Shown: piece after piece, positions 5,883 through 25,146 of the stretch
Numbering within the stretch: position 1 is the stretch's first letter
How the letters are laid out: each line of letters begins with the position of its first letter
IMG/VR virus record: IMGVR_UViG_3300019776_000550
Coordinates: 27,499 to 91,498 of that record
Source of the DNA: a virus
DNA length: 64,000 nt
Reading direction: 5' to 3' (one strand)
Position numbers and translations under genes: made by a program
Notes under the pieces: generated by a model
Seen by the model: the letters and a program-made list of their open reading frames with translations, nothing else
The model's database searches: none
What the model was told of the DNA's origin: nothing

Positions 5883-6437
5883 CTACCTAATAGTAAGATG
5901 TTGACTTTCAACAAGTTCAGCACCTACTATATCAACTCCCTGTTGAATTTCTTTCTTAATTTCAGTTTTGTTTACTTCTTTTTTGAAAGCTGTAGCATCA
6001 ATATTAAGTAATGAAGAAACAGCATTTGCATCATTTAAATCAAGTTTTGTAGATAATGTAAATCTACAAAATTTCGGATTAATCAAAGCTTCATCAACTT
6101 TAACACTTACAGACTTACCAATAGATAAACTAAAATCATCTACTTTAGCTTTACCTCCTCTTAATTGTAAGGAGTGCATTAAATAAGTTTTCAATCTACT
6201 AATTGTATTATCAGTAGCTTGATTCTTTTGTTTAAGTCTGTCAATTTCTGATTTACGAAGTTCAATAACTTGTTCTAAATTCTTAATAACCCATACATAA
6301 TCATTTGCTTTATCATTAAACTCGGATTGATTAATAGTAAGAATTTCATCAAGTTCGTCTGTTAACTCACCTTCATTTTCAATTAATTGTTGAAATGCAG
6401 TTTGTAAGTCTTTGTCAATCTCCCAAAGTGTCTTCAT
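5883..6437 (-). CDS. Siphovirus Gp157 family protein
   Basis: MKTLWEI...IKNLE...EIDRL...RLK.YL...K.EIKKEIQQGVDIVGAELVESQHLTIR pattern. Confidence 0.85.
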   Translation of the reverse strand: MKTLWEIDKDLQTAFQQLIENEGELTDELDEILTINQSEFNDKANDYVWVIKNLEQVIELRKSEIDRLKQKNQATDNTISRLKTYLMHSLQLRGGKAKVDDFSLSIGKSVSVKVDEALINPKFCRFTLSTKLDLNDANAVSSLLNIDATAFKKEVNKTEIKKEIQQGVDIVGAELVESQHLTIR

Positions 6438-7092
6438 AAGATTTGTATTTATAAATGTTAATAATAAGTTTTCGGTAATTTGAAACTGAATTTGGGTTGT
6501 TAGAAATTACAATTTCATGTTCAATTCTTTTAATGCAATGAACATTATCATTGAGTATAAATCCAACAGGATTTTTTTCTACTACCCCACGTTCAGTAAA
6601 TTCATGTTCTTGTATTACATCTAAAAATGTTTTTTCGTAATACTGTTTGTAATTATCTAAATCATCAATATTAGATTTTGTAGGAGCTACATCATCTAAA
6701 GTTGTGAAATAAATAAATTCTATTCTAATAGGTTCATTTATAATAGCAGAAGGTTTAAGACTTTTCTTAAAATAATCTTTAAGGTATCTTTTGATTGCTA
6801 TATAATTACCTAAATCCATTTGACTTTTTTTACTATTACCTTTAGTATGAAGCCCTTGTCCTGCAATTTTTAAAAAGCGTTGTGTACCAGCTTCTTTTGC
6901 ATTGCTTAAAATAGGTTCATAAGTAGACAAATCTACTAAAACACCTTTTTTATTAAAATCACAAGTATAACCAATTTCATTAGTTAACTTCTTAGGTATT
7001 TTTTTAGAAGATTTAGTGTAATACTTTGCTCTTATTATTCCTTTAGGAACATATCTTGGATAATCATGAAATACAAATTGTCGTAGTAGCAT
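6415..7092 (-). CDS. RusA-like Holliday junction resolvase
   Basis: DLDNY...KTFLDVI...GFILNDN acidic motif spacing of RusA. Confidence 0.6.
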   Translation of the reverse strand: MLLRQFVFHDYPRYVPKGIIRAKYYTKSSKKIPKKLTNEIGYTCDFNKKGVLVDLSTYEPILSNAKEAGTQRFLKIAGQGLHTKGNSKKSQMDLGNYIAIKRYLKDYFKKSLKPSAIINEPIRIEFIYFTTLDDVAPTKSNIDDLDNYKQYYEKTFLDVIQEHEFTERGVVEKNPVGFILNDNVHCIKRIEHEIVISNNPNSVSNYRKLIINIYKYKSYEDTLGD

Positions 7093-15070: not shown

Positions 15071-17002
15071 TTAAAATAGTTTTAATTGATTTTTGTTAAC
15101 TTTTTTATTCTTACTTTTATAATCTTGTTCAATATCATCAATAAGCTTTTGAGCTTCTTGAATATAATATCTAAAATCTATATCAGTAGGAAAATCATCA
15201 GGTAATCTGTTAATTAATTCTACATTAAATCCTGAAACTATTTGAGATATTCTACCATCTTCAAATACTTTTTTAAGTTTCTTATAAGATTTAGCTACAT
15301 AAAATCTAACAGTTCTTGATACTTCTTCTTCTTGAATAGAAACACCGTTATAAACTTGAATAACAAGTTTATCTTTTTTGTTACAACGTTCTTTTAAACA
15401 AAACTTTTTAATATCATAACAAGTTGTTATAGTTTCTCTAATAGAAATATTGTTTACAAAATAGTTAATAGCTGCAATTACACTAATTTGATTGCTATAA
15501 TCTTTATGATAAGGGTCAGGTACTGAATCTGATTTTAAATCAGGTACATAAGCTCCTTTGTACTTATATTTATTTTCTTTAGTTATAGCAAAATAATTAT
15601 TTACATCTCTAATAAACATGGCTTTATAAAAAACTTCTTCTAATTCCATGTTAAAAAAAGATTCCCATTGATTACATATCTTTCTAAAATTGTCAATTTG
15701 ATTATTATTAACATAAACGGTAATACCATCTGTATTAGCTTGTATAATTTGACAATCTTCTATTTCTGATATATCTTCTAATAACTTTAATAATCTAAGT
15801 TGACCATTAATAGTTACTTTAAATGTACACGCAATATCATACAAAAAACTATACTTATCCTTAAATTTGCCATAAACACTATTAAGTGCTTTTTTATAAG
15901 TATCAGATTGAATTTTAGCATTTTTATCACTTTTAATAAGTGATTTATTTTGCTTTCTCCAAGTAACTTGTGATTTAGCAACTTTAAGAAAAGATTCTTT
16001 ATTAAGATGTTCAGGCACTGCTTCTAAATCTATATAAAGTGAAGGATATAGTGATGCTACATCTACATCAATTATACTATGAGTAGAAGACTCTTTGAAA
16101 ACACCTTTTAAAGAACCATGAATACCACCTTTTTTAACATCTAATTTAAGTTCTTTAATATATACATCAAATGCAACTTTATTTTCAATGCTATCTTTAT
16201 TATCATTGCTATTATAAATAACAACTTTTTTAAGTTCGTGTTGAAGTTCTTTTAAATGATTTTGTTTAAAGTTGATATGTTGTATTATATCTTTTAAATT
16301 AACAAAATCTCTATTAGTTCTTCTTTGTAGAACTTCTTGTGGGTTCTCATTTGTTTCTTTACAATAATAATATAAAAAAAGATGTTCTCCTAACTTAGAA
16401 TCTGACCAATTAATACAATCTAAATTTGTATTTTGTTTGATATTTTGTCTAAGTCTTATGTTATCAACCATTTTTAAGAAAAACTGATAAGTAGCTTGAA
16501 CATCATTAAGATTGTATTCAAGTATTTTATTTTGTTCTTCTATCTTTGTAATTGTAGAAGTATAATGATAAGGCATATCTTCTACATTAGGCAATTCTAA
16601 AGCAACTTCTAATTGTTTTAAAGAAGTTCTTCTTGCTGGATTATCAAAATGAGCTATACTAAATACATCAATCTGACTAAATATAGGATTTCTAATCCTA
16701 TTGAATTTAGGAGTTTCGGTATTTACAAGTCTTTGACTTTCTTTATATAACAAATCATTCATTTCTTCTAATGGGAGATTACCAACTATATTGAAAAGAT
16801 AATCTAAAAGTGGATAATCATAGTTTAAGTTATTAAAACCTATACCTATTATACCACTATTTACAAAATCTTTATATTCTTGATAATCATTATTAAATAT
16901 AGATAAGGTGAAGCTTTTAACTTCACCTGTATCTATATCTAACCACGTTGAACAATGAAAATTTTTAAATTGCTCAATATCATATACCCAAATATTTCTC
17001 AT
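15071..17002 (-). CDS. polB: DNA polymerase family B with 3'-5' exonuclease
   Basis: YDIE, GFNNLNYD, YNLNDV exonuclease motifs; DVASLYPS, KKALNSVYGK, NTDG polymerase motifs. Confidence 0.93.
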   Translation of the reverse strand: MRNIWVYDIEQFKNFHCSTWLDIDTGEVKSFTLSIFNNDYQEYKDFVNSGIIGIGFNNLNYDYPLLDYLFNIVGNLPLEEMNDLLYKESQRLVNTETPKFNRIRNPIFSQIDVFSIAHFDNPARRTSLKQLEVALELPNVEDMPYHYTSTITKIEEQNKILEYNLNDVQATYQFFLKMVDNIRLRQNIKQNTNLDCINWSDSKLGEHLFLYYYCKETNENPQEVLQRRTNRDFVNLKDIIQHINFKQNHLKELQHELKKVVIYNSNDNKDSIENKVAFDVYIKELKLDVKKGGIHGSLKGVFKESSTHSIIDVDVASLYPSLYIDLEAVPEHLNKESFLKVAKSQVTWRKQNKSLIKSDKNAKIQSDTYKKALNSVYGKFKDKYSFLYDIACTFKVTINGQLRLLKLLEDISEIEDCQIIQANTDGITVYVNNNQIDNFRKICNQWESFFNMELEEVFYKAMFIRDVNNYFAITKENKYKYKGAYVPDLKSDSVPDPYHKDYSNQISVIAAINYFVNNISIRETITTCYDIKKFCLKERCNKKDKLVIQVYNGVSIQEEEVSRTVRFYVAKSYKKLKKVFEDGRISQIVSGFNVELINRLPDDFPTDIDFRYYIQEAQKLIDDIEQDYKSKNKKVNKNQLKLF

Positions 17003-17004
17003 AA

Positions 17005-17301
17005 TTACTGATTTAGTGATTGATAAACTTCAAACACTCCAAGTTTTTCTAATAAAACTCGTAAAGGTTCTCCACCAAAAGAAAATCGTGTATGATTCCA
17101 TGATATTTCTAATGATTCATGTTCGTCGAGATGTACAACAAAATAATTAGATTTATTAAGAATTATACTATTTACAGTATATTCTTTATTTTCTATTATA
17201 GGTAATTCTCCTGATGCTATAATCATAGAAATTATATCATCAGGAATACCTTTATCATTTGTACAAACTACTTTTAATTCACTACTAGGCTTAATTATCA
17301 T
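17005..17301 (-). CDS. hypothetical protein
   Basis: ORF. Confidence 0.6.
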   Translation of the reverse strand: MIIKPSSELKVVCTNDKGIPDDIISMIIASGELPIIENKEYTVNSIILNKSNYFVVHLDEHESLEISWNHTRFSFGGEPLRVLLEKLGVFEVYQSLNQ

Positions 17302-17470
17302 CTAAATCCTTTTTGACACCTATGATAATTAAAACTAATACTGTTCCATAGATTAAACCATGTATTACAGCTAATGTTGGATTATGCTGAATAGCATAAA
17401 TTGTATCTGTAATCCATAAAAACAGCACTAGTGTTAATGCTGCCAAGAATAAGCTCATAATAGTTTTCAT
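17291..17470 (-). CDS. small two-TM membrane protein (59 aa)
   Basis: Own translation MKTIMSLFLAALTLVLFLWIT...GLIYGTVLVLIIIGVKKDLDDN*. Confidence 0.55.
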   Translation of the reverse strand: MKTIMSLFLAALTLVLFLWITDTIYAIQHNPTLAVIHGLIYGTVLVLIIIGVKKDLDDN

Positions 17471-17521
17471 TATTAAAATTATTATTGGTTACTGATTAAT
17501 TAACTGCTGTAATTTAACAAT

Positions 17522-17547
17522 AAAAAGGGAGTTTTTCAACTCCCTTT
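17522..17547 (-). terminator. rho-independent terminator
   Basis: AAAGGGAGTT/AACTCCCTTT directly after the 17555 gene. Confidence 0.75.
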
Positions 17548-17554
17548 GATTTAA

Positions 17555-18388
17555 TTATGCGTTGATTTCTGTTAACATACCAAGATTACGAACTGCATAT
17601 TGGTTTTGTAACCACTCTTGAAATTCAGCATTAAACAATGCACCTTGTTTTACTGCAACAGGAACACTATCAGCAGGGATAACATCATCATGCTTAAATT
17701 CAGCATTATTTTTCAATTCATTTGCTCTAAAACCTGCTAAAGACGCTTGTATGTCAGTAGTAGGTCTTACTACTAATGTAGTAAATTGAAAAATGAGTTT
17801 ATTATTTAATAACAAAACATCACCTCCTTTACCACTACGCTTGGGTTCAAGTGTAATCAAACCTGTTGTGGTAAGCTGTGGCATTTGAAGAGTTGTTGTG
17901 TTATTACGAACAATATACGTAACAAAATTCTTCTTTACTAAACTTTCACTAAAGTTAAATCCATCTTTAATACCATTAGCTTCACAAAAAGCCAATGTTG
18001 TAGTTTGCCAAAAATACTTTTGGCGACTTGAATTTGACACTCTACCCATTAGGAAATAACCTAACAGACTAGAACTGTCTTCAATTTCATCACTTGATTC
18101 AACATTTTGAGTAAACTCAAGTTGAAACGTAAGTGCATTAATACATGTAATACGTTTTTCTTCTTTTGAAGAATTTACAAATGCAGCATTAGGTTCTGCA
18201 TTAAATATTTGTTTATATACAAAACCAAGTTCTTCATGGCTTTTATCAATAAACAAAGCATTTTTACTGGCTTTGATTTCTTCATAAGAAGTCATTCCAG
18301 TAGCTGCAATAGTAGGTTTTGTTATTTTAACTTTGTTAACAATAACTGGATTTGTGATTTCGAACGGATTTGAAATTTCAGTTGACAT
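17555..18388 (-). CDS. hypothetical protein
   Basis: 277-aa ORF with its own terminator. Confidence 0.8.
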   Translation of the reverse strand: MSTEISNPFEITNPVIVNKVKITKPTIAATGMTSYEEIKASKNALFIDKSHEELGFVYKQIFNAEPNAAFVNSSKEEKRITCINALTFQLEFTQNVESSDEIEDSSSLLGYFLMGRVSNSSRQKYFWQTTTLAFCEANGIKDGFNFSESLVKKNFVTYIVRNNTTTLQMPQLTTTGLITLEPKRSGKGGDVLLLNNKLIFQFTTLVVRPTTDIQASLAGFRANELKNNAEFKHDDVIPADSVPVAVKQGALFNAEFQEWLQNQYAVRNLGMLTEINA

Positions 18389-18441
18389 AGTTTGATTTAT
18401 TTAAGTTGGTTTGAAAAAAAAAAAAAAAAAAATATAAGATG

Positions 18442-18696
18442 TTAATATACTACATTGTTCAATCTCAATGATTTAAGATTTTGTTTCTTAATCCATTGTG
18501 AATTATTGAGAACAGATAAAATCTGTTTACGTGCGTCATAATATGACTTAGCATGTACAGATATGACAAATTCATATCTAGTATTTCCAAACTGTTTATC
18601 TTTACTTTCTGTTTCTCTACCTGTATAACTACAAGTATTTACTTTAGAAATTGAAATTTGTTTACCAAATAAATCTACAATACCCGTGTATATCAT
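18442..18696 (-). CDS. hypothetical protein
   Basis: ORF. Confidence 0.6.
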   Translation of the reverse strand: MIYTGIVDLFGKQISISKVNTCSYTGRETESKDKQFGNTRYEFVISVHAKSYYDARKQILSVLNNSQWIKKQNLKSLRLNNVVY

Positions 18697-18929
18697 AATT
18701 TAAAATAATTGTTTTCAATTTCTTTTTCATATTCAACATGTTCAATAGCTTGTTCTATGTTATGAGGACATGTACTTTGTACTCTTTGATTGTTTCTCAC
18801 AATCATTTTAAGAGTATTACGTAGATGATTGATGTCCATAGCATCAATATCTACATATTTTCCATCTTTAGTTCTCCAATATACTTTTTCCATTGTCATA
18901 AATTTTTTAAAAAGGAAGTGATTTTTCAC
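18693..18929 (-). CDS. hypothetical protein (W.TKDG...I..M...HL.N family)
   Basis: Recurrent small phage motif WRTKDGKYVDIDAMDINHLRN; true start probably downstream of 18929. Confidence 0.6.
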   Translation of the reverse strand: MKNHFLFKKFMTMEKVYWRTKDGKYVDIDAMDINHLRNTLKMIVRNNQRVQSTCPHNIEQAIEHVEYEKEIENNYFKL

Positions 18930-18944
18930 TTCCTTTTGTTTGAT

Positions 18945-19289
18945 TTACATCAACCACTTATTTGCATTTTGTTGATGGTATTCAACCATCAAGTTAGCTT
19001 TTTGTGGATTCAAATAAATCCACATTTGCTTCGCCGTTTTGTACTCATCGTACACTTTCTTTGCATTTATGCAAGTAAATTCGTACATGTCAATAACATG
19101 TACAACTTGCTCTACGTTTTCTCCTCCTGCTGCTTTAGGAAGAGTGAAGTAGAATACCATTTCTCCTATACAAGCGGCAATTTGAAAATTGCCCTTGCAG
19201 AAAATCTTTCCTGTTGGAAATACAGCGGTGAAATTTAATTCACCATTTCCAAACGTCTTTGTGATTTTAATTCCGTTAATGTTATTCAT
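18945..19289 (-). CDS. hypothetical protein
   Basis: ORF. Confidence 0.6.
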   Translation of the reverse strand: MNNINGIKITKTFGNGELNFTAVFPTGKIFCKGNFQIAACIGEMVFYFTLPKAAGGENVEQVVHVIDMYEFTCINAKKVYDEYKTAKQMWIYLNPQKANLMVEYHQQNANKWLM

Positions 19290-19479
19290 GTTCTTCTATG
19301 TTTAGTGATGTTAAAAATGAAACCATACCCACGATACATAAGTTGTATGTGGCAAAAAATAATTTAACATAAGAGACATGAATGTCTATTACATTAAAAA
19401 ATAAATATTCTGCTAATATCAATAACACATATATAAAAAGTGTCATTAATATTATAAAAATTAATCTTGTTATTTTCAT
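19282..19479 (-). CDS. small membrane protein
   Basis: Two hydrophobic segments; poly-A leader. Confidence 0.6.
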   Translation of the reverse strand: MKITRLIFIILMTLFIYVLLILAEYLFFNVIDIHVSYVKLFFATYNLCIVGMVSFLTSLNIEEHE

Positions 19480-19502
19480 TTTTTTTTTGTGATTAAAATA
19501 AA

Positions 19503-19535
19503 ATATTCCTATTCAGTAAAACTAAATAGGAATAT
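19503..19535 (-). terminator. hairpin / terminator
   Basis: ATATTCCTATT/AATAGGAATAT. Confidence 0.55.
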
Positions 19536-19552
19536 AATCATTTGTCCATCAT

Positions 19553-19768
19553 TTATCTGAAATATACGAAAATGTCGTCGTATATTTCAGATACAACCAC
19601 TACTGCTCCAATAAGAGCAAACATTAGACCGCCACCTATTAAATAGGCGACTGACATTATTACTTCATGGTAATTAATGTCAAATATAAGACTGATAAAG
19701 GCTGCAGGAATTACGAATAGAATAGACCATACAGCTACAAATCCAATAAGACAAATTAATGCTTTCAT
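19553..19768 (-). CDS. small two-TM membrane protein
   Basis: Two hydrophobic helices; A14 leader. Confidence 0.65.
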   Translation of the reverse strand: MKALICLIGFVAVWSILFVIPAAFISLIFDINYHEVIMSVAYLIGGGLMFALIGAVVVVSEIYDDIFVYFR

Positions 19769-19800
19769 TTTATTTTTTTTTTTTTTAAGGTTTATGTTCT

Positions 19801-19871
19801 TTTTTCTTCACTCTGCTTTTTACAAGGACTTGTGACCTTCTATATTAAATATAGGTAGCATTAAAGAAAAA
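19801..19871 (-). ncRNA. twister self-cleaving ribozyme (type P1)
   Basis: Minus RNA UUUUUCUU-UAA-UGCU-ACC-UAUAUUUAAUAUAG-AAGG-UCAC-AAG-U-CCUU-GUAAAA-AGCA-GA-GUG-AAGAAAAA. P1 (8 bp), P2, P3, P4 and both pseudoknots (CAC/GUG; AC/GU) align with the twister consensus. Predicted cut U19863/A19862. Confidence 0.92.
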
Positions 19872-19897
19872 GCATCTATTCTCCCAACAGATGCTTT
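19869..19897 (-). terminator. terminator-like hairpin overlapping twister P1
   Basis: AAAGCAUCUGUU-GGGAG-AAUAGAUGCUUU followed by UUCUUU. Confidence 0.55.
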
Positions 19898-19908
19898 GAA
19901 TAGTTGTG

Positions 19909-20049
19909 CTACACTTTTACACAACTAAGAATCAAGGAACTTTCATCCTTAATAATAGAAATAGCTTCCATAACAGAAGAAGCTTCAATTTCCATATTAA
20001 GAACAATAATTCCTGTTCTCAGACGGTAACTTACTAAATACTTGTTCAT
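19909..20049 (-). CDS. small hypothetical protein (46 aa)
   Basis: Own translation MNKYLVSYRLRTGIIVLNMEIEASSVMEAISII... Confidence 0.55.
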   Translation of the reverse strand: MNKYLVSYRLRTGIIVLNMEIEASSVMEAISIIKDESSLILSCVKV

Positions 20050-20082
20050 AGTATTAGGTTTAAATGTAAGAAAATAGAATTA

Positions 20083-20253
20083 CTATTGAATTTTAATAAT
20101 TCCGTCATAATCTACGGAATATATCAAAAATCTTTTATCTCTTATCTCTCTCCAGATAGAAGCATTTTTCAGAGTTTTTAATCTTTCTAACGCATCTTCT
20201 AATGATTCAAACCATATATATTCATAGTCTGAATTAAATATAAAGTATTCCAT
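20083..20253 (-). CDS. small hypothetical protein (56 aa)
   Basis: Own translation MEYFIFNSDYEYIWFESLEDALERLK... Confidence 0.55.
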   Translation of the reverse strand: MEYFIFNSDYEYIWFESLEDALERLKTLKNASIWREIRDKRFLIYSVDYDGIIKIQ

Positions 20254-20326
20254 AATAAACAATTAAAAATGAATAAAACAGAATTGTGACAGTTTCTAAG
20301 ATAACTGACAAAACTTATTGTTTGCA

Positions 20327-20548
20327 TTACAATATTGTAACACCTGTTAAAACTCTTGAAGTTGTATTATTTACAACTTCATAAAATTCCCAAACCATGT
20401 CTCCATTGTTATAATTAAACATAGAGACATAAATAGAATTAGAATCATAACATTCTAATTCTATAAATTCTTTCCATGCTTTTTCCAAACCATTTTCATG
20501 GTTTGTATGAGTTGGGAAAAATTCAATAAATTTCAATTCTTTCAACAT
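20327..20548 (-). CDS. hypothetical protein
   Basis: ORF. Confidence 0.6.
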   Translation of the reverse strand: MLKELKFIEFFPTHTNHENGLEKAWKEFIELECYDSNSIYVSMFNYNNGDMVWEFYEVVNNTTSRVLTGVTIL

Positions 20549-20742
20549 AAATCTTCTATTTTTAAATCTAAAACTGGAAGTTCTTTTACTATTTTGTAAT
20601 AATAACTTTCTGAGTCATCAGTAGGTTGATTATTAACAAAATTCTGAACTTTTTCTAAGTCTTTTTCTTGTATCTTACCTAGTAAGATATTTTCATCACA
20701 GTGTCCTTTACCGTGATAATAATATTTGAATAAATACATCAT
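20542..20742 (-). CDS. hypothetical protein
   Basis: ORF with poly-A leader. Confidence 0.6.
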   Translation of the reverse strand: MMYLFKYYYHGKGHCDENILLGKIQEKDLEKVQNFVNNQPTDDSESYYYKIVKELPVLDLKIEDLC

Positions 20743-20781
20743 TTTTTTTTTTTTGATTTAATTACACAGCTTAAAATAAAA

Positions 20782-21650
20782 TAATTACAATTGTATGATT
20801 TAATGCAAGTAGTTTGATTAACTTCTCGGAACTAACTTTCATAAGAATTTCTTCTTATAACCAGTACATCCTTTGCACATACAATTGTAATTAATTGTTT
20901 TTAAATGTTCGGTTGTGTCTGTTTTGTATATCACAACTTTATCTTACACATCTATTGAGAAACCTCCAATGTCTCAAATGTTTTTCAATGTGTAAACCAG
21001 ATGCTTTACTTCAAACATTTCAAAGCTTCAATGGAGTTTGTAAGCTTTGAATAACAATGACCTTTTAACTTACATGATTTTCTCATGTAAAACTTTTATA
21101 AAAGTAGTTTCAAGATTTATTTAGACACGTTTATCTCATCATCAGATTGTTTTCGTGTATATTTTAATTCAAAACTTAATAATAAAACAACAACTCTAGG
21201 TGTACATATCATAGGTAGTGAGCCTATGTACATATTTTTCACAGTTGAGCGTTGTTGCTTTATTATCTACTTCTAATAACATCAGTTGTCTTTTGTTATT
21301 AGATTCACCTTCTGTTCACTCTAAGCAAGTACGTGTTATTGTATTAACACAATGCGATATGAGCATAAACAGTTTTCATCTCCTTATTTAAGGGAAACTA
21401 GGTTAGTCAAAAAAAAAAGAAGTAGTTTATTCTTTCAGATGTCTTTTAAAAAGACGGAAAGATGGACACAGCTGACATTGTAAGCAGTCCTACTTCTTTT
21501 ACGTAATCCTACCATCATGTCACTAGGTAGGTTTCCCACTCAACCTTCTATCATTATGATAGCTAACCCTTGTGAAGTTAGAATGAGGTTTTAAGAATCG
21601 TTAGTTTTATTCTGTTGCCAAGAAAAACTAACAAAAAACTCCGAATCTTA
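20782..21650 (-). ncRNA. ORF-free tract of tandem structured RNA elements
   Basis: At least nine consecutive stem-loop or junction modules; G-U pairs favour the minus strand. Confidence 0.65.
21049..21158 (-). ncRNA. type I hammerhead ribozyme (variant core)
   Basis: Minus: stem I AACAAU/AUUGUU; CUGAUGA (21145-21139) plus extra U; stem II GAGAU/AUCUU; GAAAC; long stem III; GUC (21061-21059); ACACG/CGUGU pseudoknot. Confidence 0.7.
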
Positions 21651-21651
21651 T

Positions 21652-22002
21652 TCAGTCGCAGAGTTCAGACCTAACACAACCTGAATGTGCAAATGGAAAT
21701 CCATCATACATTCCACCTCCGCAATGACTACAAGTAGTCTCTGCAAAAGTGTCATGGATTTTTTCCATTGCTTCATTGGTTGCTGGTTCAGACATCAACT
21801 CTAGCAATACTTTCCTTAAATCATAAGGATTATGGACTTTGTAAGTATTATGCTCACAATCCATAGCGTATGCAGAGTCAATATTCTCATGCGTTATGTT
21901 TATACACTTATTATTGTAATAAGCTGATAAGCAATAAACATGAGGTAGTCTGTGACCATTAAAGTCTAAACCAAACTGCTCTACAAGGACTAATTCTGTC
22001 AT
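21652..22002 (-). CDS. hypothetical protein with C-terminal Zn-finger-like CxxC...HxxC
   Basis: Track ORF 21652..22041; start MTELV after A-rich leader; CSHC...HSGC. Confidence 0.65.
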   Translation of the reverse strand: MTELVLVEQFGLDFNGHRLPHVYCLSAYYNNKCINITHENIDSAYAMDCEHNTYKVHNPYDLRKVLLELMSEPATNEAMEKIHDTFAETTCSHCGGGMYDGFPFAHSGCVRSELCD

Positions 22003-22144
22003 TGTTTTACAATTTAATTTAAAAAGTTTTTCTACTAACATAACTTCTAGTAGATAAAGTGATACTAATTACCTGTTGATTCTCAAGATGTATCAAGTCT
22101 TGATTCCTTATACTCAGTTAGCAGGTTCTGAGTTTAGGATTGAG

Positions 22145-22510
22145 TTACAGAGTAACCACTTTCTCTCTCAAATTACGAGAGACATGGTTTCTCAATGTCT
22201 GCAAATCTGCCTGTTCTTTACAGACAAACTCTCCATTTGCTTCTCTAACAAGAGTAGCAATAATAGGAAAGTTCCCTGTAAGTCCATGCAGTGCTACTAA
22301 TACCATAGTAGCTAATGCAGACATTCCTGGAACTGCTACCGTAACAACAGTATTACTTTCAACCCCTAAAGATTGAAGATACTTTGTTACAGCTTCCAAA
22401 TTTTCCCCAAATGGTTTTTCAGGGTTAATTTGAACAGTTCCATGAAACTCAAATCCTAATTCATCAAGACTCTTGTTAAAGTGTCCTGACAAGTTAAGTT
22501 TCTTGTTCAT
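22145..22510 (-). CDS. Csx15-like protein (CARF-related, type III CRISPR-associated family)
   Basis: LNLSGH...INPEKPF.E...PGMSALA..VL..LHG.TG.FP.I..L.R...DLQ.LR...R..R matches the Csx15 pattern over the full length. Confidence 0.75.
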   Translation of the reverse strand: MNKKLNLSGHFNKSLDELGFEFHGTVQINPEKPFGENLEAVTKYLQSLGVESNTVVTVAVPGMSALATMVLVALHGLTGNFPIIATLVREANGEFVCKEQADLQTLRNHVSRNLREKVVTL

Positions 22511-22683
22511 TTTTAAGGAACGTAGGAAACTAATGTGTTCTATTCTAAGTAAGAACACTTAACTTGCAACCACTAAAGTAGGTTACTTTCACTTTGTAGC
22601 ATATTTAAAAATCTGGAGGTAATGCTACTTAACCTCACTGTTAGCTTTTTATATAAAAAAGCTAAAAAAACAAAAACAAAAAG

Positions 22684-22710
22684 AAAAAAAAGCTAGGATT
22701 AACCTAGCTT
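22684..22710 (-). terminator. rho-independent terminator of first early gene
   Basis: AAGCTAGG/CCTAGCTT overlapping the stop codon, followed by a U-run. Confidence 0.7.
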
Positions 22711-22929
22711 GAATTTCTGGATGATAGCGTCTAACACGCTATCAGCAACACCGTAACCATTTGCGTATTCAATAACACTGACTTCTGCATCAGTGAATTT
22801 CTCCGCGATACATATTAACGTTTGCGAAGCTTTTGACAGCTTCTCGTAAATTTCGTCGGTGACTTCCACACCTTTTCTGCCCGATACCTTTCTATCGGTA
22901 TCTTTAACATCTAACTTTATCTGAGCCAT
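22699..22929 (-). CDS. hypothetical protein, first gene of leftward unit
   Basis: ORF with A-rich leader and its own terminator. Confidence 0.7.
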   Translation of the reverse strand: MAQIKLDVKDTDRKVSGRKGVEVTDEIYEKLSKASQTLICIAEKFTDAEVSVIEYANGYGVADSVLDAIIQKFKLG

Positions 22930-23317
22930 TTTCTTTTTTGTTTAAAGTTTATTGGGGGTACAACCCCTCGCAATTTCAGTAGGGGGTGGCTAAGGTAAGT
23001 AGTTCCTCAATCAGCAAATTTCCACAACTTCTATTAAAATTATGATGTCTTCATTCAGCAAATCTTTTTGTAGCACTATAATCAGCTAGGGGGGTCTTTT
23101 AGTATATTAATCCAAAGTACCTTCTTTTGTAGTAGGGATATTAGGTATATCATGTTCAGCAAGTGTATTTTTAATGTCAATTCTATTGTTCTAATGGGGG
23201 TTATTCAGTAGGTTTTTGCTGTTTTTGGCTGTTTTCATTTTAAAATAGTTTTTTTAAGTATATGGAAAACGGTCATTTTAAGCTACTTTTAGAGTTAACT
23301 GCCTGATTATCAATCAG

Positions 23318-23362
23318 TTTACTATGTCAAAATTATAATTTTACTATGTCAATATTTTGACA
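23318..23362 (+). repeat. 13-bp direct repeat plus palindrome
   Basis: TTTACTATGTCAA at 23318 and 23340; TGTCAA-TATT-TTGACA at 23347-23362. Confidence 0.75.
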
Positions 23363-23372
23363 GTTTTTTCGC

Positions 23373-23380
23373 TATATTTG
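23373..23380 (+). promoter_or_regulatory. Bacteroidota -7 promoter box
   Basis: TATATTTG matches TAnnTTTG, 19 nt before the ATG at 23400; no well-spaced -33 box. Confidence 0.45.
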
Positions 23381-23399
23381 TACAAATCATTTGATAAAA

Positions 23400-23933
23400 A
23401 TGAAGATAAAAGAAGTAATAAAAATCAATAAAGTAGCTGTAAAAGTAAGAGATGTAGATATAGGTGTTAATCCTTTCATGAAAGATGTAAATATTAAAGT
23501 ATCTGTAGTAAATTTAGAAGGTGATTATGTTAAAGAGGATGATTTATACTTACCAAATAACACTTATATTGAATCAGAACCTTATACAAAGATTTTTATA
23601 AATGCTGAAAACAGAAAAATTGTTAATAAATTAACACAACGAGGTAAAGATTTGCTATTATGGTTGCTTTATGAGATGGAAGCTGGTCAAGATTTTATTA
23701 AAATTAATAAAGTTAGATATATGAAAGAATTAAGTATCAAATCTGTTAATACTTATAAAACAGCTTTATCAGAATTAATAAGATATGGTATGTTAAAGGA
23801 GTCAAAAGCAAAAGATATATACTGGATTAATTCACAATTCTTTTTTAATGGTAATAGAATCAAGAAATATAAAAAACAACTGATAAATAAAGATGGCAAT
23901 AGAATTAATAATAAAGAGAAAGGCGTTTCCTGA
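23400..23933 (+). CDS. RepL-like winged-helix replication/regulatory protein
   Basis: LLLWLLY...SVNTYKTALSELIRYGML...IYWINSQFFFNGNRI, the C-terminal motif of RepL-like proteins. Confidence 0.75.
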   Translation: MKIKEVIKINKVAVKVRDVDIGVNPFMKDVNIKVSVVNLEGDYVKEDDLYLPNNTYIESEPYTKIFINAENRKIVNKLTQRGKDLLLWLLYEMEAGQDFIKINKVRYMKELSIKSVNTYKTALSELIRYGMLKESKAKDIYWINSQFFFNGNRIKKYKKQLINKDGNRINNKEKGVS

Positions 23934-24186
23934 AAGAGAAAAACTAGAGTTAAGGTTAAAAGAAATGGGATTTAAGAATAAAATTGATTCTAAACCTTAT
24001 ACTGCTTGGAAAATATGGAATAGTTTTTTGGTTATTCGTACTTACGGTAACTATTATACAGTACATACTAACGGAGATATAGACCATTATGAAGTTAAAA
24101 AATGTGCTTATCAAGGTATTAGTTACGAAATGAACAATTTTGATTTTTTAGGTCAACTTTTAACAAAAAAAGATATAGAACAATGA
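23893..24186 (+). CDS. hypothetical protein
   Basis: ORF. Confidence 0.55.
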   Translation: MAIELIIKRKAFPEREKLELRLKEMGFKNKIDSKPYTAWKIWNSFLVIRTYGNYYTVHTNGDIDHYEVKKCAYQGISYEMNNFDFLGQLLTKKDIEQ

Positions 24187-24377
24187 ACTTAGAAGAAGTA
24201 ACAAAGATAAGAGTAAGAATCAAAGCTCTTCAATTGCAAGTTGATACTGCCAATAGTATCATAGAAAAAGCTGAACTAATGGATGAAATTGAAGATTTAA
24301 AAATTCAAGTTGGTGATTTTGAAAGAAAAGTAAGAGATATTAGTGATGATTTAGATTGTGAAAACTGTAGCGGATAA
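24183..24377 (+). CDS. hypothetical protein with C-terminal CxxCSG
   Basis: Coiled coil ending DCENCSG. Confidence 0.6.
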   Translation: MNLEEVTKIRVRIKALQLQVDTANSIIEKAELMDEIEDLKIQVGDFERKVRDISDDLDCENCSG

Positions 24378-24378
24378 T

Positions 24379-25146
24379 ATGAAATACTTTATAGACACTG
24401 AATTTCTTGAAGGAACGCAAGATAAAACTATATTTGGAATTAAATATGGTAAAACGAAGCCTACAATTGATTTAATATCAATAGGTATAGTAGCAGAAGA
24501 TGGTAGAGAATATTATGCTATTAGCAAAGATTTTAATTTAAAAGAAGCTTGGAATAGGTATGATTTAAAAATCAATAAACATTTTCCACAAGGTTCTGAA
24601 TATAATAAAGAATATTGGATTAGAGACAATGTGTTATTTTCAATTTGGAAAGAACTTGTAGCTAAAGATGTACAATGGTACAAAGATATGTGGAGAAAAG
24701 TTCCAACTTATACAAATGCTTATAATCCTAAAGACCATTACTTTAATTACAGTAACCTTAAAAGACTTATTAATGATTACGGCAAAACAAATAAACAAAT
24801 AGCAGAAGAAGTTAAAGAATTTGTTTATAAAAATAATAAACCTGAGTTTTATGGTTATTATTCAGATTATGATTGGGTAGCTTTTTGCTGGTTATTTGGG
24901 AAAATGATAGATTTACCTAAAGAGTTTCCTCAATATTGTATTGATTTAAAACAAGAATTAGATAATAAAGTTAAAACTTATTTTGCACAAAGAGATGATG
25001 ATTATATATTAAATGTTTATGGTTATGAAGGCGTATTAAATAAAGTTAAACAGTTGCCTGATTACCCAAAGCAAATTAATGAACATCATGCTTTAGCGGA
25101 TGCTAAATGGAATAAAGAGTTATATGATTTTTTTGACTTTTATTGA
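24379..25146 (+). CDS. DEDDh 3'-5' exoribonuclease (Rv2179c-like)
   Basis: FIDTEF, DLISIGIVAEDGREYYA, YYSDYDWV, HHALADAKW. Confidence 0.85.
   Translation: MKYFIDTEFLEGTQDKTIFGIKYGKTKPTIDLISIGIVAEDGREYYAISKDFNLKEAWNRYDLKINKHFPQGSEYNKEYWIRDNVLFSIWKELVAKDVQWYKDMWRKVPTYTNAYNPKDHYFNYSNLKRLINDYGKTNKQIAEEVKEFVYKNNKPEFYGYYSDYDWVAFCWLFGKMIDLPKEFPQYCIDLKQELDNKVKTYFAQRDDDYILNVYGYEGVLNKVKQLPDYPKQINEHHALADAKWNKELYDFFDFY

Follow-up and report, generated by a model that had tools for sequence, protein, structure and literature searches.

A putative type-P1 twister ribozyme with a P0 hairpin between small genes of a probably crAss-like freshwater phage

Type-P1 twister ribozymes (RF03160) share a fixed order of elements that runs from P1 and the U-A step through P2, L2, P3, and P4/L4 to P2' and L1 (Roth et al., 2014, as reviewed in PMC5408937). 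The U-A step is the cleavage dinucleotide, and the definitions of the two pseudoknots, T1 and T2, that we use here come from the same review (PMC5408937). Some natural twisters also carry P0, a stem-loop immediately 5' of P1 that occurred in about 10% of 2625 natural twister candidates tested (PMC11662667). In vitro cleavage averaged 0.40 with P0 and 0.85 without auxiliary stems, while natural twisters with both P0 and P3 had a mean of 0.67, and the twister descriptor allows 'NC' for the 2-bp pseudoknot (PMC11662667). [quoted passage not shown] Earlier publications thus cover the P0 stem, variation in the pseudoknot letters, and the occurrence of twisters close to phage genes.

Here we describe a twister from a 64,000-nucleotide stretch of viral DNA, hereafter the window, which comprises bases 27499-91498 of a 91.5-kb viral record that has direct terminal repeats and is rated complete. 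Like the clustered phage ribozymes reviewed previously (PMC6765202), it sits in a block of small phage genes, whereas the carrier in this case appears to be a complete, distantly crAss-like freshwater phage. In keeping with the described type-P1 twister, the element has both pseudoknots, the conserved loop letters, and the optional P0 and P3 stems, and it is intergenic and on the sense strand. It departs from the type in having A-U rather than C-G as the middle pair of T1, A-U rather than G-C as the first pair of T2, one A-U pair in P4, and a short P3 loop. Together these differences lower its score to beneath the Rfam gathering cut-off, but none of them exceeds the known variability of the type. 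We consider it probable, at roughly three chances in four, that this is a genuine type-P1 twister with P0 and P3 that cuts a leftward multi-gene phage transcript between small genes.

Identity and fold of the element

The twister, of type P1 with a P3 stem, occupies 19803..19869 on the minus strand, on the evidence of the RF03160 match, our own viral twister model (R1), a minimum free energy (MFE) fold, and covariation. The RF03160 match runs over 19867..19805 on the minus strand, covers model positions 1-68 of 68, and reaches 58.9 bits; its E-value is 1.1e-12 when 701 bases are searched, 1e-10 in the whole 64-kb window, and 3.5e-14 in the 91.5-kb genome. Among Rfam families, it is the sole match in the window with E <= 0.1, and model R1 gives the window twister 74.5 bits. 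An earlier note on this DNA had placed a twister at this position on the coding strand of the flanking genes, which is the minus strand, and the full-length match with all pairs intact bears this placement out. That note had also proposed comparison with the Rfam twister-P1 covariance model. The comparison yielded a significant full-length match (E = 1e-10), but the score of 58.9 bits lies below the gathering cut-off of 67.2 bits, and an Rfam search of the window at the gathering cut-off returned nothing. Part of this shortfall arises because the covariance model ignores pseudoknots, so that compensated changes within them cost bits.

The stems and pseudoknots of the type are all found on the minus strand. 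P1 pairs UCUU with AAGA and is extendable to 6 bp, P2 pairs UGCU with AGCA (4 bp), P3 is a hairpin of 5 bp, and P4 pairs AAG with CUU (3 bp). Pseudoknot T1 joins L4 to the 3' side of L1 through 3 bp (CAC with GUG), and T2 joins L4 to L2 through 2 bp (AC with GU). P1, P2, and P4 are closed by standard pairs in the canonical order, and all 21 twister pairs, both pseudoknots included, are standard in the window's row of the alignment of viral twisters described below (A1). The conserved letters of L1 and L4 are kept as UAA, GU.C.CAAG..C, UAAA, and GAG.G. Relative to the RF03160 alignment, conserved letters change at six positions, which make up three compensated pairs, and at no others. These pairs are A12-U46, by which T2 reads AC/GU instead of GC/GC; A41-U63, the middle pair of T1, which gives CAC/GUG instead of CCC/GGG; and A36-U49, an A-U for a C-G in P4. 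The first of them is the compensatory change in the second pseudoknot that had been read from the letters earlier, and in model numbering it proves real. When 19930..19760 was folded by MFE, P0 and the ribozyme stems formed unconstrained (z = -3.7 against shuffles).

The predicted scissile U-A step lies at 19862..19863 on the minus strand, at model positions 5 and 6 (UAA). Cleavage is predicted to fall between 19863 and 19862, so that the 5' product would carry a 2',3'-cyclic phosphate on its last base, 19863, and the 3' product a 5'-OH on its first base, 19862. The earlier proposal of a 5'-OH end at 19862 agrees with this prediction. Because the full-length model match, the intact stem and pseudoknot pairs, and membership in a covarying set of viral twisters all bear on it, we regard the twister identity of the element as well supported.

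Viral twisters and the P0 hairpin

To form a comparison set, IMG/VR viral contigs were scanned with the L4 core as the pattern, any base being allowed at its two variable letters, which gave more than 100 loci, and parsing of those loci yielded 81 distinct type-P1 twisters. The middle pair of T1 in viral twisters is A-U in 79 cases, U-A in 7, C-G in 3, G-C in 1, and a mismatch in 2, while for T2 the counts at the variable pair are 55 C-G, 35 U-A, and 1 U-G. The pseudoknot variants of the window are therefore common natural forms. Alignment A1 holds 49 viral twisters, that of the window included, and its pairs were counted on the full fold with both pseudoknots. Standard pairs fill 96.7% of its pair cells, versus 68.5% in column shuffles and 23-45% with partners slid by 1-3 columns. 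Double-sided changes occur in 17 of the 21 pairs across the 49 sequences, and P1, P2, and P4 covary, with 90-99% of cells paired. The fixed letters of the search pattern cannot vary, and invariant pairs are hence uninformative either way. For 65 of the 81 viral twisters, the strand that holds them is also the one that carries more of the surrounding coding sequence.

Four viral type-P1 twisters scored 45-61 bits against RF03160 (gathering 67.2), and 14 further loci, with 15 twisters, gave no RF03160 match at gathering. With the window counted, gathering was thus reached at 0 of the 19 viral type-P1 twister loci checked (20 twisters). A score under the cut-off is therefore a trait of the viral subgroup and not a mark against the window element. 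The RF03160 gathering cut-off is too strict for viral type-P1 twisters, and routine Rfam annotation under-reports them. Direct matches to the window element were also sought: a 30-base segment of the ribozyme, searched as an exact string, was absent from metagenome contigs, and window positions 19000-21000 had no match in phage records by blastn.

Several other elements came to light in these searches. Hammerhead type II or twister-P5 ribozymes score above gathering in viral loci that also hold type-P1 twisters (L003:2756-2820; L103:5431-5495 and 6332-6396; L053:27-87), and their presence beside type-P1 twisters is the known clustering of ribozyme classes. At locus L055:6153-6826, on the minus strand, a twister at 6826..6775 (54.6 bits) precedes a full-length ROOL RNA at 6760..6153 (337 bits) by 14 nt; the pair adjoins a tRNA array, and the twister is placed to trim the ROOL 5' end. 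The same L4 pattern also picked out, at L015:13100-13250 on the minus strand, a circularly permuted twister in which the GAGUG side precedes the UAA side. Within the window itself, a divergent twister-like element lies at 21533-21597 on the minus strand. The viral twister model matches it weakly with filters off (18.9 bits; E = 2.8e-4 over the 2 kb searched), over the outer shell of P1, UAA, P2, GAGUG, and P1'; by eye, its hairpin occupies the P5 rather than the P3 position and its L4 is 9 nt long, and Rfam gave no match there at E <= 10.

Immediately 5' of the window ribozyme, the MFE fold places a hairpin of 11 bp with a 5-nt loop (19870..19896, minus strand), which abuts P1 with no linker and is followed by a U-rich run. 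This upstream hairpin had been considered as a new feature and was rejected as such, as it is the published optional twister stem P0/L0 (PMC11662667). Because of the U-rich run after the hairpin, a terminator scan flags a terminator-like site over P0 (19897..19869, minus strand).

P0 is far commoner in viral twisters than the roughly 10% reported for twisters generally. Of the 80 viral twisters tested, 45 carry a perfectly paired stem of 6 bp or more that stops 0-2 nt short of P1, versus 4-7 of 80 in the same test at six shifted control positions, and the 45 hairpins form 20 clusters of unrelated sequence. A terminator-grade T run is found in only 3 of these 20 clusters, and a role for P0 as a general intrinsic terminator was rejected. 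By the perfect-stem test, the free 3' tail after the predicted cut is 4-7 nt long across viral twisters; in the window it is 6 nt by that test and 7 nt by the MFE fold.

The flanks of the viral twisters also differ from controls in structure. The 40 nt upstream fold with a mean of -10.4 kcal/mol versus -5.0 kcal/mol in the control (p = 1.6e-10), and the 40 nt downstream with a mean of -3.1 kcal/mol versus -5.7 kcal/mol (p = 4e-6); these p-values overstate independence because many of the 80 twisters are related, and the 20 unrelated P0 clusters are the safer measure. The 30 nt downstream consist of 43% A. The layout of hairpin, ribozyme, and open leader recurs across viral twisters.

The carrier phage and the surrounding genes

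The genome that carries the element has a G+C content of about 28% and is divided into a minus-strand block, from 1 to about 23000 in the window, that encodes DNA polymerase and helicases, and a plus-strand block that encodes terminase, portal, and major capsid protein. The major capsid protein matches the capsids of crAss-like phages at 26% identity over 98% of its length (E = 1e-29 to 3e-33), and the named hosts among the capsid matches are all Bacteroidota. DNA of the phage is present in aquatic and freshwater metagenomes from several studies. From the capsid protein and the genome size class of about 90-100 kb, we read the carrier as a complete freshwater phage that is probably distantly crAss-like. 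A full-text literature search found no paper that combines self-cleaving ribozymes with crAss-like phages. Relatives chosen by their DNA polymerase (L134-L139) contained no twister by Rfam or by model R1, and in two phages whose DNA polymerases show 64% and 37% identity, the 6-7 kb upstream of that gene held none. The element is therefore not a conserved part of the phage lineage, and these relatives supply no syntenic copies for covariation of the window element itself.

Upstream of the ribozyme on the minus strand lies an ORF of 46 amino acids (19909..20049) that may or may not be a gene, and a second hairpin in the MFE fold, of 9 bp (19901..19927), overlaps its stop codon. Downstream, an A-rich leader without a Shine-Dalgarno sequence (19769..19802, minus strand) is unstructured in the MFE fold and leads into a gene for a 71-amino-acid protein (19553..19768, minus strand). 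The earlier note had described a small membrane protein here. The product indeed has two strongly hydrophobic segments, as does the 65-amino-acid protein that follows. The spacing of 32 nt given for this gene also holds, its start codon at 19768 being 32 nt after the start coordinate which that note gave the element; counted from our own boundaries, the start codon lies 36 nt past the end of the model match and 34 nt past the extended P1. Just past the 71-amino-acid gene, the terminator scan marks a hairpin of 15 bp with a T run (19503..19535, minus strand).

Searches of Pfam and PHROGs returned no matches for the small ORFs around the ribozyme (46, 71, and 65 amino acids). The 71-amino-acid protein has five full-length relatives at 79-99% identity, and a search for its relatives in viral contigs found none. 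One 206-nt contig from a poly(A)-selected metatranscriptome (run X20) spans 19551-19756 with one mismatch, for which DNA carry-over is possible, and in two RNA-labeled runs, examined as contigs, most pieces at 19768-19808 are low-complexity A/T matches, with no informative piece over the ribozyme. The lack of a Shine-Dalgarno sequence in an A-rich leader presumably fits a Bacteroidota host.

The ribozyme lies about 3.5 kb into the leftward block, measured from the strand switch near 23.3 kb. The Bacteroidota -7 motif TAnnTTTG is not enriched in the window (119 found, 122 expected), and a scan of the window for sigma-70-type promoters stayed at chance level. At the strand switch itself, TAnnTTTG boxes stand back to back (23335..23328, minus strand; 23373..23380, plus strand), and the next one on the minus strand does not come until 19688. 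As a pointer to an early transcript, these boxes are only a hint. Terminator-like hairpins are enriched in 17000-25000 (15 versus 2.0 +/- 1.8 in shuffles), and several of them flank small genes of the minus-strand block.

Variation between strains was seen in contigs from a divergent strain (run X5). Over 19800-19971 one contig carries 15 substitutions; the 12 that are listed all fall in 19880-19940, and the ribozyme core contains none of these. At 19880, within P0, the substitution makes a U-G pair out of a U-A pair, and pairing is kept. In another X5 contig the match to the window breaks off at 19536 and picks up again at 19800, on the ribozyme's 3' edge, so that the 71-amino-acid gene and its leader are skipped. 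In a further skip of 20054-20275, the neighboring ORF of 59 amino acids is replaced by 23 other letters. As a weak hint, this suggests that the ribozyme may be conserved while adjacent genes are swapped, with small-gene cassettes exchanged at fixed RNA elements.

Proposed working of the unit and competing explanations

On the reading that we prefer, transcription would run leftward from the strand-switch region, and the P0 hairpin with its U run may halt some of the polymerases. In transcripts that read through past P0, the ribozyme would fold and cut between 19863 and 19862. The upstream RNA would then end in the P0 hairpin and a 7-nt tail with a 2',3'-cyclic phosphate and would probably resist 3' exonucleases. 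In bacterial RNA decay, a hairpin end with few bases and a cyclic phosphate offers little hold for 3' exonucleases or poly(A) polymerase. The downstream RNA would begin with a 5'-OH buried in the ribozyme fold, continue into the open A-rich leader, and carry the two small membrane-protein genes; the 5' end of the twister 3' fragment has been described as buried in the fold (PMC8782182). That this region is transcribed, that the RNA cuts itself in the cell, and that RNA stability and translation change as a result is our inference. Weighing against this reading are the score below the gathering cut-off, the lower mean in vitro cleavage of twisters with P0 (PMC11662667), the lack of an enriched promoter motif in the window, the missing twister in the two phages compared by DNA polymerase, and the destabilizing effect that a 5'-OH end can have in hosts with RNase J.

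Cutting between genes has precedents in the RNase III sites of phage T7 early mRNA and in the synthetic RiboJ insulator. As at those sites, a polycistronic transcript would be cut between genes, leaving a hairpin at the 3' end of one part and a defined leader for the next. The likeness would be one of function only: unlike those systems, the window twister would need no host enzyme, and its ends would be a 2',3'-cyclic phosphate and a 5'-OH. Going further, we tentatively propose, at somewhat less than even odds, that P0, twister, and A-rich leader form a unit of host-independent mRNA punctuation, with a hairpin-capped cyclic-phosphate 3' end of 4-7 free bases on one side and an insulated, unstructured leader on the other. 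Several ribozymes, this one among them, would divide the leftward transcript of small genes, and the unit would double as a joint for cassette swaps between strains.

The element could instead be a real ribozyme whose selected role lies at the level of DNA, as a joint for the exchange of small-gene cassettes, with RNA cleavage secondary. The X5 contig that skips 19536-19800 loses exactly the 71-amino-acid gene and its leader and ends at the 3' edge of the ribozyme, the second skip at 20054-20275 replaces a neighboring small ORF, and the DNA-polymerase relatives that have no such element imply that the region is mosaic. However, the catalytic letters and the compensated pseudoknots are strictly kept across many unrelated lineages, which argues for selection on the RNA fold and not for mere sequence identity. 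We therefore think it unlikely that the DNA-level role is the primary one, and the two readings are not exclusive, as a cassette joint is compatible with cutting of the RNA.

A second alternative is that the ribozyme lowers expression of the membrane proteins, either because its 5'-OH end is degraded by a host 5' exonuclease or because the genes are uncoupled from upstream translation, which would keep potentially toxic proteins low. The small proteins encoded by both downstream genes are very hydrophobic. Where the host has RNase J, an RNA may be destabilized rather than protected by its 5'-OH end, as with the glmS ribozyme of Bacillus. This ribozyme provides a precedent in which a ribozyme-made 5'-OH triggers decay (reviewed in PMC6765202). 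Such a dampening role seems improbable to us here, since the downstream leader is open and A-rich, as for efficient initiation, and is so across viral twisters, and since the twister fold hides the 5' end of its 3' fragment (PMC8782182).

Finally, that hairpin and U run are a plain intrinsic terminator, with the twister-like sequence rarely transcribed or an inactive relic, is very improbable even though 19897..19869 passes the terminator-like rule in a region where such sites are enriched (17000-25000, 15 versus 2.0 expected), because a relic would not retain all 21 pairs and all conserved letters, a terminator-grade T run occurs in only 3 of the 20 viral P0 clusters, and there is no obvious promoter between the P0 hairpin and the start codon of the 71-amino-acid gene.

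Taken as a single element, the twister adds little, being one more twister near phage genes, and it places a ribozyme in what is probably a distantly crAss-like phage. The arrangement of hairpin, ribozyme, and open leader makes the idea of mRNA processing by such twisters testable through the ends and stabilities of the RNAs that they would produce.
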